Source of the DNA: Escherichia coli
GTDB lineage: Bacteria; Pseudomonadota; Gammaproteobacteria; Enterobacterales; Enterobacteriaceae
Length of the DNA stretch: 64,000 nt
Direction: 5' to 3' (one strand)
NCBI RefSeq assembly: GCF_048403405.1
Contig: NZ_CP183129.1
Below the pieces are notes generated by a model that saw nothing but the letters and a program-made list of their open reading frames with translations, was not told where the DNA came from and searched no databases. A program made the position numbers and the translations under genes. Below are positions 8,577 through 50,990 of this stretch, one piece after another. How positions within the stretch are numbered: the first letter of the stretch is position 1; the number at the start of each line of letters is the position of its first letter.

Positions 8577-8609
8577 TAACTGCGCCTGGCATCCCGCCAG
8601 GCGCAGGTT

Positions 8610-10179: not shown

Positions 10180-11049
10180 TTATTTCAGAACAGTTTTCAG
10201 TGCTTCACCGATATCCGCCAGGCTGCGAACGGTTTTCACGCCTGCGGCTTCCAGAGCAGCGAATTTCTCATCCGCAGTCCCTTTTCCACCGGCAATGATC
10301 GCACCCGCGTGGCCCATACGTTTGCCTTTCGGCGCAGTCACACCAGCGATGTAACCCACAACAGGCTTGGTAACGTGCTCTTTGATGTACGCAGCCGCTT
10401 CTTCTTCAGCGCTACCGCCGATCTCACCGATCATCACGATCGCTTCGGTCTGCGGATCTTTTTCGAACATTTCGAGGATGTCGATAAAGTTAGAGCCAGG
10501 GATCGGGTCGCCGCCGATACCAACACAGGTCGACTGACCGAAACCGTAATCCGTGGTCTGTTTCACCGCTTCATAGGTCAGTGTACCGGAACGGGAAACG
10601 ATACCCACTTTACCCGGTTTGTGAATGTGACCAGGCTGGATACCGATTTTGCATTCACCCGGAGTGATAACGCCTGGGCAGTTCGGGCCGATCATGCGAA
10701 CGCCCGCTTCATCCAGTTTCACCTTCACGGTCAGCATATCCAGCGTCGGGATGCCTTCAGTGATGGTGATAATCAGTTTGATGCCTGCATCAATAGCTTC
10801 CAGAATGGAGTCTTTGCAGAACGGTGCTGGTACGTAGATAACAGAAGCGGTAGCGCCAGTAGCAGCAACAGCTTCACGCACGGTGTTGAACACCGGCAGG
10901 CCGAGGTGGGTGGTGCCGCCTTTACCTGGGGTTACGCCGCCAACCATTTTAGTGCCGTATGCAATGGCCTGTTCTGAGTGGAAAGTCCCCTGGCTACCGG
11001 TAAAGCCCTGGCAGATAACCTTGGTGTTTTTATCAATTAAAATGGACAT
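10180..11049 (-). CDS. sucD: succinyl-CoA synthetase alpha subunit
   Basis: 289 aa; [33 protein letters not shown]; canonical operon position. Confidence 0.96.
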
Positions 11050-12215
11050 TATTTCCCCTCCACTGCGGCAACAACCTGCTGAGCTGCATCCGTCAGACCT
11101 TTTGCTGCAATAATATTCAGGCCGCTGTCAGCCAGTTTCTTCGCGCCGAGTTCGGCGTTGTTACCTTCCAGACGTACCACGACCGGTACGTTAACACCCA
11201 CTTCCGCTACCGCGCCGATGATACCGTCAGCGATCAGGTCGCAACGAACGATACCGCCGAAGATGTTAACCAGAACGGCTTTCACTTTGTCGTCAGAGAG
11301 GATGATTTTGAACGCTTCGGTTACACGTTCTTTGGTTGCGCCGCCGCCAACGTCAAGGAAGTTAGCTGGTTCGCCGCCGTGCAGTTTAACGATGTCCATC
11401 GTACCCATCGCCAGACCTGCGCCGTTAACCATACAACCGATGTTACCGTCCAGCGCAACGTAGTTCAGTTCCCACTGTGCAGCCTGTGCTTCACGTGGAT
11501 CTTCCTGCGACTGGTCACGCATTTCGCGCAGATCAGGCTGGCGGAACAGTGCGTTGCCATCAGCGCCCAGTTTGCCGTCGAGGCAAATCAGATCGCCCTG
11601 TTTGGTGATGACCAGCGGGTTGATTTCGATCAGCGCCAGGTCGCGCTCCAGGAAAATGGTCGCCAGGCCCATGAAGATTTTGGTGAACTGCTGAACCAGT
11701 TTACCTTCCAGACCCAGTTTGAACGCCAGCTCGCGTCCCTGATACGGCATCGGGCCAGTCAGCGGATCAAGCGCAACTTTGTGGATCAGGTGCGGAGTTT
11801 CTTCCGCCACTTTTTCGATTTCCACGCCGCCTTCGGTGGAGGCCATAAAGACCACACGACGGGAACTACGGTCAACAACGGCACCGAGATACAGCTCTTT
11901 AGCGATATCGGTCGCTGCTTCAACCAGAATCTGGTTAACCGGTTGGCCATTGGCATCTGTTTGATACGTTACCAGACGCTTGCCCAGCCAGTTTTCTGCA
12001 AAAGCACGGATGTCTTCTTTGCTGTTTACAACTTTCACACCGCCCGCTTTACCGCGGCCACCAGCGTGAACCTGACATTTCACTACCCACGGACCGGCAC
12101 CGATTTTTGAAGCGGCTTCTTCTGCTTCGCGCGGAGTAGTACAGGCATAACCCACCGGTGCTGGTAAGCCATAGCGGGCAAAAAGTTGTTTTGCCTGATA
12201 TTCATGTAAGTTCAT
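11049..12215 (-). CDS. sucC: succinyl-CoA synthetase beta subunit
   Basis: 388 aa; [18 protein letters not shown]; stop overlaps the sucD start. Confidence 0.96.
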
Positions 12216-12254
12216 GTGTTCTGTCCATCCTTCAGTAATCGTTATCTTTTAAAC

Positions 12255-12286
12255 CGTAGACCGACACCCTATCCACGTCGGTCTAC
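12255..12286 (-). other. 10-bp perfect inverted repeat (RNA stem-loop) in the sucB-sucC intergenic region
   Basis: GTAGACCGAC...GTCGGTCTAC with an 11-nt loop, between the sucB stop and the sucC start. Confidence 0.5.
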
Positions 12287-12308
12287 AGTGCAGGTGAAGC
12301 TTAAACTA

Positions 12309-13526
12309 CTACACGTCCAGCAGCAGACGCGTCGGATCTTCCAGCAACTCTTTGATCGTTACCAGGAAGCCCACGGATTCGCGACCATCGATCAGACGGT
12401 GATCGTAGGACAGCGCCAGGTACATCATCGGCAGGATCTCAACCTGACCATTCACCGCCATCGGACGATCTTTGATAGCGTGCATACCCAGAATTGCGCT
12501 CTGCGGCGGGTTGATGATCGGCGTAGACATCAGGGAACCGAACACACCACCGTTGGTGATGGTGAAGTTACCACCGGTCAGATCTTCAACCGTCAGCTTG
12601 CCGTCACGGCCTTTAACTGCCAGCTCTTTGATTTTCTTCTCGATGTCTGCCATGCCTAGGGTATCGACATCACGCAGTACCGGCGTCACCAGGCCGCGCG
12701 GCGTAGAAACCGCCATGCTGACGTCGAAATAGTTGTGGTAAACCACATCATCGCCGTCGATAGACGCGTTCACTTCCGGGTAACGTTTCAGGGCTTCAAC
12801 CACCGCTTTCACGTAGAAGGACATAAAGCCCAGACGAATACCGTGACGTTTTTCAAACGCTTCACCGTACTGCTTACGCAGATCCATAATCGGCTTCATG
12901 TTGACTTCGTTGAACGTGGTCAGCATAGCGGTGGAGTTTTTCGCTTCCAGCAGACGCTCTGCCACACGCTTACGCAGGCGAGTCATCGGGACACGTTTTT
13001 CGCTACGTGCAGCCAGAGCCGGTTGCGCCGCCGGAGCAGCCGCTGCCGGAGCAGACTCTTTCGCCGGGGCTTTCGCCAGATGTTTTTCCACATCTTCACG
13101 AGTCAGACGACCACCCACACCGGTGCCTTTAATGGCGCTGGCGTCGAGGTTGTGTTCAGCCAGCAGGCGACGGATCGCCGGGCTTAACGCATCGTTGTTT
13201 TGCTCTTCCAGAGACGCCTGCTGGCGTTGCGCCGGAGTGGACGCTTTCTCTTCAGATTTGGCGCTGGTTTCTTTACCGGCGCTGTTGCCTTCACGCAGGC
13301 GACCAAGGATCTGACGAGACGTTACCGTTGTACCTTCATCTTCCAGAACCGCATCCAGAATGCCGTCTGCTGATGCCGGTACTTCCAGTACCACTTTGTC
13401 AGTTTCGATTTCTACCAGCACTTCATCACGTACGACTGCGTCGCCGGGTTTTTTATGCCAGGTTGCGACGGTGGCATCGGCTACGGATTCAGGCAGGTCA
13501 GGGACCAGAATATCTACGCTACTCAT
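12309..13526 (-). CDS. sucB: 2-oxoglutarate dehydrogenase E2 (dihydrolipoyl succinyltransferase)
   Basis: 405 aa; lipoyl domain and Ala/Pro-rich linker. Confidence 0.96.
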
Positions 13527-16506: not shown

Positions 16507-16691
16507 GCATTTCTTTTGTAGGCCGGATAAGGCATTCACGCCGCATCCGGCGCTGTTTGCCTGATGCGACGCTTGCGCGTCTTATCAGGCCTACGATTTC
16601 TGCATTTCTTTTGTAGGCCGGATAAGGCGTTCACGCCGCATCCGGCACTGGTTGCCTGATGCGACGCTTGTGCGTCTTATCAGGCCTGGGT
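16507..16691. repeat. two tandem REP/BIME-type palindromic units (about 95 bp each) between sucA and sdhB
   Basis: Near-identical direct copies beginning GCATTTCTTTTGTAGGCCGGATAAGGC...GCCTGATGCGACGCTTG.GCGTCTTATCAGGCCT at 16507 and 16602. Confidence 0.75.
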
Positions 16692-50213: not shown

Positions 50214-50887
50214 CAAACGTTCTGATTGTTGAAGATGAACAGGCTATTCGTCGCTTTCTGCGCACGGCGCTGGAGGGCGACGGTATGCGCGTCTTTGAGG
50301 CCGAAACGCTGCAACGCGGCTTGCTGGAAGCGGCAACCCGTAAGCCAGATTTGATTATTCTCGATCTCGGCCTGCCCGATGGTGATGGGATTGAGTTTAT
50401 CCGCGACCTGCGCCAGTGGAGCGCGGTGCCGGTGATTGTGCTTTCCGCACGTAGCGAAGAGAGCGATAAAATCGCCGCGCTGGATGCCGGAGCGGATGAT
50501 TACCTGAGTAAGCCATTTGGTATTGGCGAATTGCAGGCCCGTCTGCGCGTCGCTTTACGCCGCCACTCCGCCACCACCGCGCCCGATCCGCTGGTGAAAT
50601 TTTCCGATGTTACCGTCGATTTAGCGGCTCGTGTGATCCATCGCGGTGACGAAGAGGTGCATCTCACCCCGATTGAGTTCCGCCTGCTGGCGGTGCTACT
50701 TAACAATGCCGGAAAAGTACTCACCCAGCGCCAGTTACTCAATCAGGTGTGGGGACCAAACGCGGTCGAACACAGTCATTATTTGCGTATTTATATGGGG
50801 CATCTGCGACAAAAACTGGAACAGGATCCCGCCCGGCCTCGCCATTTCATTACTGAAACCGGTATTGGGTATCGGTTTATGCTTTAG
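50210..50887 (+). CDS. kdpE: response regulator KdpE (OmpR family)
   Basis: 225 aa; GTG start overlapping the kdpD stop (GTGA). Confidence 0.95.
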   Translation: MTNVLIVEDEQAIRRFLRTALEGDGMRVFEAETLQRGLLEAATRKPDLIILDLGLPDGDGIEFIRDLRQWSAVPVIVLSARSEESDKIAALDAGADDYLSKPFGIGELQARLRVALRRHSATTAPDPLVKFSDVTVDLAARVIHRGDEEVHLTPIEFRLLAVLLNNAGKVLTQRQLLNQVWGPNAVEHSHYLRIYMGHLRQKLEQDPARPRHFITETGIGYRFML

Positions 50888-50899
50888 GCGGTTAAATGC

Positions 50900-50990
50900 T
50901 GGATCCGGCATGAACGCCTTATCCGGCCTACAAAATAGCGCAAATTCAATATATTGCACCATCCTCGCAGGCCTGATAAGCGTAGCGCAT
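50900..50990. repeat. REP-type palindromic elements in the kdpE-pgm spacer
   Basis: GCCTTATCCGGCCTAC and AGGCCTGATAAGCGTAGCGCATCAGGC motifs. Confidence 0.6.

Follow-up and report, generated by a model that had tools for sequence, protein, structure and literature searches.

An intercistronic hairpin between sucB and sucC in Escherichia coli: a short allele of a REP/BIME locus with a possible role at the 3' end of the sucAB mRNA

In the stretch of Escherichia coli DNA that was analysed (64,000 nucleotides of RefSeq assembly GCF_048403405.1, contig NZ_CP183129.1, hereafter the window), the list of open reading frames places sucB (annotated odhB) at 12309-13526 and sucC at 11049-12215, both on the minus strand, and the two genes are separated by a spacer of 93 bp (12216-12308). 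On the minus strand, which is the transcribed one, the order of the elements is sucB ...GACGTG TAG TAG TTTAAGCTTCACCTGCACT GTAGACCGAC GTGGATAGGGT GTCGGTCTAC GGTTTAAAAGATAACGATTACTGAAGGATGGACAGAACAC ATG (sucC). The sucB frame is closed by a TAG codon at 12309-12311, with a second in-frame TAG at 12306-12308, and this tandem TAG TAG (12306-12311) is kept in E. albertii and in all the E. coli alleles. The left anchor of the locus is a CACCTG box (12291-12296) located just 5' of a perfect 10-bp inverted repeat of 31 nt (12256-12286), and the box is also kept in the spacers of Escherichia, Citrobacter, Enterobacter, Superficieibacter and Pseudocitrobacter.

In this inverted repeat, the 5' arm GTAGACCGAC (12277-12286) starts with a REP-type GTAG head, the loop GTGGATAGGGT comprises 11 nt (12266-12276) and the 3' arm GTCGGTCTAC (12256-12265) ends in CTAC, which is the head of an inverted REP. 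Downstream of it are found the tail GGUUUAAA (12248-12255), with only 3 U, and an A/U-rich linker predicted to be single-stranded (12233-12252), which may serve as an endonuclease entry region and extends to the ribosome-binding site of sucC, where the Shine-Dalgarno sequence AAGGA (12228-12232) precedes the ATG at 12213-12215. The initial annotation of this DNA had reported, in the 93-bp spacer, an inverted repeat of 10 bp enclosing an 11-nt loop, and all three figures were confirmed; of the boundaries that it gave, 12255 and 12286, the latter is exact whereas the former is one base off, the true position being 12256.

When the inverted repeat was searched as a pattern with up to 3 mismatches, it matched the window once and gave 0 matches in 100 dinucleotide shuffles of the window. 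Counting perfect hairpins with a stem of at least 10 bp and a loop of 3-20 nt, Markov simulations gave an expectation of 1.27 per 64 kb, i.e. about 0.002 per 93 nt, and 13 distinct ones were found in the window. Since no shuffle contained the pattern and since so few perfect hairpins are expected in 93 nt, a chance origin of the sucB-sucC repeat is unlikely. The other 12 hairpins of this count (at 8580, 16461, 27192, 27734, 29082, 32426, 34046, 42551, 51007, 55322, 56065 and 58273) are probably terminators and regulatory palindromes.

The minus-strand RNA was then folded. The predicted stem extends beyond the perfect repeat to 15 pairs, three of which are G-U pairs, and the resulting 37-nt hairpin (ACUGUAGACCGACGU / GGAUAGG / GUGUCGGUCUACGGU, 12253-12289) has a predicted free energy of -20.9 kcal/mol, compared with -15.7 kcal/mol for the 31-nt core alone. 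For the entire spacer, a value of -27.1 kcal/mol was obtained (z = -3.26 versus dinucleotide shuffles), with helix pair probabilities of about 1.0. Counted from the first TAG of sucB, the extended stem begins after 19 nt and the perfect stem after 22 nt, and the Shine-Dalgarno sequence of sucC is not occluded by the hairpin in the predicted fold. In the minimum free energy structure, a GCUUC segment situated after the sucB stop (12297-12301) is paired with a GAAGG segment overlapping this Shine-Dalgarno sequence (12229-12233). K-12 has GUUUC instead (C to U) and the segment is absent in Citrobacter; as the pairing is not conserved, an anti-Shine-Dalgarno element was rejected and the pairing is probably due to chance.

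The hairpin was compared with REP elements. By definition, the palindrome of a REP has the conserved tetranucleotide GTAG at its foot, on the 5' side, and binding of TnpA-REP needs an imperfect stem with an internal mismatch (PMC3333891). GTAG opens the 5' arm of the hairpin, and CTAC, which is GTAG on the other strand, closes its 3' arm. The REP body of about 35 nt (y, z1 or z2) was not found: global alignment of the hairpin with the y and z2 REPs of the window and of K-12 gave z-scores from -0.75 to +0.67, versus 9.9-13.2 for the REP-versus-REP controls. No mismatch was present in the stem either, the 10-bp core being perfect and the predicted 15-bp stem being free of internal mismatches and bulges. 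In addition, the sequence occurs once in the window and is single-copy in the 3,402 genomes that carry it, so that a dispersed repeat was ruled out. A canonical REP was likewise ruled out by the alignment statistics (z at most 0.7), by the absence of a stem mismatch and by the single-copy status. Finally, a complete BIME, that is two inverted REPs and a linker, is not found in the window allele, which contains the heads only.

Elsewhere in the window, the sdhB-sucA spacer contains a canonical BIME (16518-16657) made of a y REP (plus strand, 16518), a z2 REP (minus strand, 16594) and a y REP (plus strand, 16613), and a lone y-like REP, GTAGGCCGGATAAGGCGTTCATGCCGGATCCAGCA, lies on the minus strand at 50887-50931.

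A 321-bp region of the locus was used as a query against 5,426 complete E. coli genomes, matches being kept at 95% identity or more. The flanks were matched in 5,425 of these genomes, with neighbours annotated odhB (sucB) and sucC. A blastn search for copies of the hairpin (word size 11, E up to 10) located the short form in 3,402 of the 5,426 genomes (62.7%), at one place per genome, with 2,559 identical matches, 835 with one mismatch, 7 with two mismatches and 1 more divergent. Long spacers of 274 or 365 bp, filled with REPs, are present in at least 1,884 genomes (34.7%), this count being based on coverage of at least 80% of the 365-bp spacer, and the classification does not cover about 140 genomes. 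In a sample of 60 rows spread across the ranking of the locus matches, discrete length classes were seen: 37 had the length of the window allele, 1 was 4 bp shorter, 13 were 272-273 bp longer, 8 were 181-182 bp longer and 1 was 168 bp longer. The short allele is present in O157:H7, O111:H8, 042, UM146 and one ST131 strain, and the long allele in K-12 and one B derivative. Strain HS-02 carries a second short allele, in which the same stem encloses a 7-nt loop (GGGATGT) in a spacer of 89 bp.

The spacer of K-12 MG1655 measures 274 bp and corresponds to the BIME-2 between sucC and sucB, which contains multiple gyrase cleavage sites; gyrase prefers the y-type REP bodies (PMC6379681). The left end of the array, GTAGACCGGATAAGGCATTATCGCCTTCTCCGGCA, is a y-type REP (z = 13 versus the canonical y REP of the window) after which come inverted z2 and y REPs in alternation. 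The right end, ...GACCGACAATGCCCGGAAGCGATACGAAATATTCGGTCTAC, when reverse-complemented, resembles the left REP in degenerate form (z = 7.2). Two complete inverted REPs, and hence a BIME, are found at this site in the K-12, 365-bp and E. albertii alleles. T3PE-226 coincides with a BIME (PMC9023263), which may or may not be the sucB-sucC locus.

Alignment of the short and long alleles showed that the flanks and the outer helix are identical and that the position is allelic with the known BIME, which excluded that the two forms are non-allelic. The outer helix, ACUGUAGACCG/CGGUCUACGGU, is common to all the alleles and the interior alone differs: a 7-nt loop in HS-02, an 11-nt loop in the window and a REP array of 175-280 nt in the long alleles, where the array takes the place of the 11-nt loop and of two base pairs at the inner end of each arm. 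As the same helix encloses such different interiors, the stem is what stays constant at the locus and the interior what varies. The outer 11 bp, ACTGTAGACCG/CGGTCTACGGT, are common to the window, K-12, 365-bp and E. albertii alleles, and the helix reaches 13-14 bp in both short alleles, K-12, E. coli strain 4750 and E. albertii. The outermost heads are also paired when the K-12 spacer RNA is folded in silico, where they form a predicted 15-bp helix around the array with 188 nt inside, and the pair probabilities predicted for the closing helix are 0.9-1.0 in the short as well as in the K-12 RNA. The alignments thus give good support to the view that the hairpin represents the sucB-sucC REP/BIME locus of E. 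coli in its short allelic form, a relationship that the initial annotation, having recognised the hairpin, had missed along with the GTAG/CTAC heads of its arms. The same alignments support well a short allele composed of two outward-facing REP heads (GTAGACCG... and ...CGGTCTAC) joined through 15 nt, a junction which corresponds to two further base pairs per arm and the 11-nt loop.

The natural variation of the short allele was examined in ten of the genomes with one mismatch. Three different SNPs were found, all of them within the 11-nt loop: two, G to A and U to G, affect the loop-closing G-U pair, the first converting it to A-U and the second breaking it, and the third is a G to A change inside the loop. 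In these ten genomes no SNP was observed in the 10-bp arms or in the three outer pairs. The indel of HS-02 is likewise located in the loop and leaves the arms intact. Such variants are a weak indication of constraint on the stem, as they amount to three events, with P about 0.03 if variation were uniform.

Two routes from the long to the short form were considered. A deletion between GACCG direct repeats would give GTAGACCGACAATGCCC...TCGGTCTAC, which is not the loop observed, and cleavage by TnpA-REP at C|T would remove the whole hairpin. As neither route fits, no mechanism of interconversion is claimed. The type strain of E. albertii (NBRC 107761) has the long form, with a BIME like that of K-12. 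The 261-bp spacer of E. coli blood isolate 4750 is almost identical to the E. albertii one and has the same truncated z2 REP, a likeness that suggests introgression or a trans-species (shared) polymorphism. For this reason, E. albertii was rejected as a guide to the polarity of the alleles.

To extend the comparison to other species, one scan of species-representative genomes was made, which returned 80 loci, none of them from Salmonella, Shigella or E. fergusonii. In the close relatives, the locus has CACCTG as its left and TT(T)A(A)AAGATAACGATTAC as its right anchor. Between these flanks, a two-REP BIME is found in Citrobacter youngae, a heads-only palindrome, GTAGGCCTtatcAGGCCTAC, in Citrobacter sp. 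FP75 and a single hairpin, TCAGACCGGATG...CATCCTGTCTGA, in an Enterobacter species; the outer helix at the same flanks measures 10-12 bp in two Citrobacter species and 7 bp in the Enterobacter species.

More broadly, 59 species among those returned have sucB next to sucC; they belong to the Enterobacterales, Vibrionales, Aeromonadales and Alteromonadales. In their spacers, a hairpin with a folding energy between -7 and -33 kcal/mol is present, which most often begins 5-25 nt past the stop codon, and a U-tract follows the hairpin in only about five of them. The median folding z-score is -3.17, and 76% of the spacers are below -2. With such hairpins in 59 species, a structured sucB-sucC spacer is conserved in gammaproteobacteria far beyond the E. 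coli-type REPs, the sequences themselves being unrelated. At four of the loci (Rosenbergiella, Oceanisphaera and one Shewanella species), the hairpin between sucB and sucC is followed by 5-7 U and is a canonical intrinsic terminator within the operon. Four other loci, from the Enterobacteriaceae, have an extra G+C-rich hairpin, GCCCGGCGGCG...CGCCGGGC, directly after the sucB stop, which is absent in E. coli.

Published transcript ends were then compared with the position of the hairpin. In the K-12 Term-seq data of Adams et al. 2021 (PMC7815308, supplementary file 1, LB OD 0.4), a 3' end is listed at 762981 on the plus strand, with an average of 1,569 reads, the class "orphan" and the sequence ...TTCGGTCTACGGTTTAA[A]AGATAACGAT. 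The thrL entry served to check the register of the table, and the coordinate was verified against the K-12 sequence. This end lies 8 nt past CTAC and 5 nt past the extended helix, and it precedes the ATG of sucC by 33 nt. As the helix and its flank are identical in K-12 and in the window, its equivalent in the window is position 12248. The end a few nucleotides past the stem is thus one seen in the K-12 long allele, which has the same helix and flank. In the same table, the end associated with a REP in the sdhB-sucA spacer, at 758531, has 1,404 reads and the end after sucD 19,842 (PMC7815308), so that the reads at 762981 represent about 8% of those at the 3' end of the operon terminator. The end at 762981 is listed in one of the three growth conditions, LB OD 0.4 only, and no Rho dependence is recorded for this position, which does not figure in supplementary file 2 of PMC7815308.

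No terminator-like or promoter-like site was found in or near the spacer by a consensus scan of 11900-12700, and the covariance models of Rfam 15 gave, over the same interval, one chance snoRNA match (E = 9.5, far below the gathering score). A G+C-rich stem-loop, as required of an intrinsic terminator, is present in the form of the 37-nt hairpin; a U-tract, defined here as at least 5 U in the 8 nt directly after the stem, is not, the tail containing 3 U. Considering the missing U-tract and the negative scan together, efficient intrinsic termination is unlikely. The 10-kb transcript of the operon reportedly undergoes extensive processing by RNase III/E, and further processing sites have reportedly been deduced from Northern patterns.

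Taken together, the most likely explanation is that the hairpin is a relic of the REP locus which would define and protect the 3' end of the sucAB mRNA, possibly with weak termination, a function extended to the window allele from K-12. In its precise form, the reading holds that the hairpin of the short allele defines the same 3' end as in K-12, blocks 3'-to-5' exonucleases and stabilises sucAB relative to sucCD, and we assign to it a probability of about 0.55. A stable stem placed in a transcribed, untranslated part of the sdhCDAB-sucABCD unit is what is expected of an exonuclease barrier. Genome-wide, stable stem-loops without U-tracts mark 3' ends trimmed by PNPase or RNase II in E. coli, REPs being one source of such structures (Dar & Sorek 2018, PMC6061677).

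The hairpin would be transcribed as part of the sdhCDAB-sucABCD mRNA, where a stem-loop of 13-15 bp would form 19 nt past the sucB stop. Transcripts that end or are cleaved within the 38 A/U-rich nucleotides following the stem would be trimmed 3' to 5' by PNPase or RNase II up to the stem, and a stable ...CUACGGUUUAAA-3' end would remain. In this way the sucAB segment would be protected and its level uncoupled from that of sucCD. Since the hairpin is not followed by a U-tract, most polymerases would read through it into sucCD.

The initial annotation had proposed an mRNA stem-loop separating the two halves of the operon, acting as a processing site or as a partial terminator or stabiliser, and had pointed to RNA folding, end mapping and conservation across enterobacteria as checks. 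The separating stem-loop finds partial support: the stable 15-bp stem of -20.9 kcal/mol bears out the folding and the structured spacers of 59 species (median z -3.17) the conservation, and a transcript end does map 5 nt past the shared helix, albeit in the long allele of K-12. Neither of the two findings said to speak against the proposal, a lack of conservation and a lack of nearby ends, was made, given the 59-species structure and the end at 762981. The stabiliser or partial-terminator reading is favoured by these same three results; the missing U-tract and the negative terminator scan speak against efficient termination, and nothing speaks in favour of a specific endonuclease processing site in the hairpin. 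It should be added that palindromic DNA repeats give RNA hairpins automatically, so that REP biology or the mechanics of deletion, and not selection on the RNA, could account for the conservation of the helix.

The same observations may be read in terms of a weak, partial intrinsic terminator, in which the hairpin and a short UUU would stop some polymerases 7-9 nt past the stem and lower sucCD transcription below that of sucAB. The G+C-rich and stable stem, the K-12 end 8 nt past the CTAC base of the perfect stem, a distance typical of intrinsic termination, and the true hairpin plus U-tract found here in other species are all in line with this proposal. However, the tail GGUUUAAA has only 3 U and the consensus scan for terminators was negative; sucCD is expressed from upstream promoters, so that termination would be inefficient at most, and the position of the 3' end fits exonuclease trimming equally. 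We consider a weak terminator doubtful.

It is also conceivable, though again unlikely in our estimation, that the hairpin is a neutral relic, either the remnant of a collapsed BIME or the seed of one, whose RNA structure has no selected role. A deletion across a large palindrome leaves its base, and the coexistence within one species of an 11-nt interior (63% of the genomes) and of interiors of 175-280 nt (at least 35%) indicates that the interior is dispensable. The heads-only palindrome of Citrobacter sp. FP75, beside the two-REP BIME of C. youngae, is comparable, and polymorphism for the presence or absence of BIMEs is called common in E. coli by the title of Bachellier et al. 1997. Against neutrality, a structured spacer is kept in the 59 species, including lineages without E. 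coli-type REPs, the K-12 3' end maps at the helix, and the natural variants sampled spare the stem.

An element acting at the DNA level, with the palindrome as a cruciform or as a site for gyrase, IHF or a dimeric regulator, is highly improbable. The strong gyrase cleavage site of the K-12 BIME-2 (PMC6379681) and the spacing of the 10-bp arms, 21 bp from centre to centre or about two helical turns, would be compatible with it, but the y-type REP bodies preferred by gyrase (PMC6379681) are absent in the window allele and the spacer has no promoter-like site. Furthermore, the arms are about 200 bp apart in the long alleles, so that there is no common binding geometry, and a single-copy sequence is not a recurrent operator. 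Lastly, translational down-regulation of the REP type, by stalling of the ribosome at the sucB stop followed by mRNA cleavage, trans-translation and reduced SucB, can hardly be retained: REPs near stop codons can act in this way (Liang, Rudd & Deutscher 2015, as summarised in PMC12306157), but the structure must, according to the same source, lie within 15 nt of the stop codon, and the stems are located 19 nt (extended) and 22 nt (perfect) past the first TAG.

On the preferred reading, definition and protection of the sucAB 3' end, the hairpin would belong to the ordinary class of protective stem-loops between cistrons, here at a REP/BIME locus, and the allele itself, with its relation to the K-12 BIME-2, is a small new detail. 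In this context, the sucB-sucC BIME-2 of K-12, a model gyrase site, is absent in about 63% of the complete E. coli genomes, which have in its place a hairpin of 31-37 nt that retains the closing helix and the 3' flank. The short and long alleles therefore constitute a natural pair with which the effects of the REP array (gyrase binding, attenuation) may be separated from those of a simple hairpin (3'-end definition, sucAB protection), in an operon that balances three enzymes of the TCA cycle.

A more speculative idea, which we hold to be distinctly unlikely, is that the closing helix itself is the unit under selection, as an operon-internal 3'-end hairpin in whose loop REP/BIME arrays have repeatedly been born or lost. 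In both Escherichia and Citrobacter it would be kept between the same anchors, with CACCTG preceding it and UUUAAAAGAUAACG following. If this were true, the two common E. coli alleles would be a natural experiment, the long one adding a gyrase site and a REP array; they would differ measurably in local supercoiling, read-through and the sucAB:sucCD expression ratio, and could be one source of lineage differences in TCA-cycle flux.

Compared with known systems, the hairpin resembles intrinsic terminators by its G+C-rich stem and by the distance from the stem to the 3' end, but it differs from them by the missing U-tract, its tail being GGUUUAAA. With the REP stabilisers of mRNA (malE-malF; Newbury et al. 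1987; Khemici & Carpousis 2004), it has in common a transcribed intercistronic stem-loop without a U-tract and, in the K-12 allele, a steady-state 3' end just downstream; it is, however, non-canonical in sequence, copy number and the absence of a stem mismatch, and stabilisation is here a prediction. Protective 3' stem-loops of Rho-dependent or processed transcripts (PMC6061677) are likewise stable, are not followed by uridines and have a precise 3' end nearby, as in K-12, whereas the sucB-sucC hairpin is internal to an operon, with read-through into sucCD. The closest relative is the K-12 BIME-2, an in vivo gyrase site (Espeli & Boccard 1997; Sutormin et al. 2019, PMC6379681). The window allele has no REP bodies, and thus none of the y REPs cleaved by gyrase, and an 11-nt loop takes the place of the 188 nt inside the K-12 helix; both alleles occupy the same chromosomal position with the same flanks, share the outer 11-bp helix ACTGTAGACCG/CGGTCTACGGT and are identical from there downstream to sucC.
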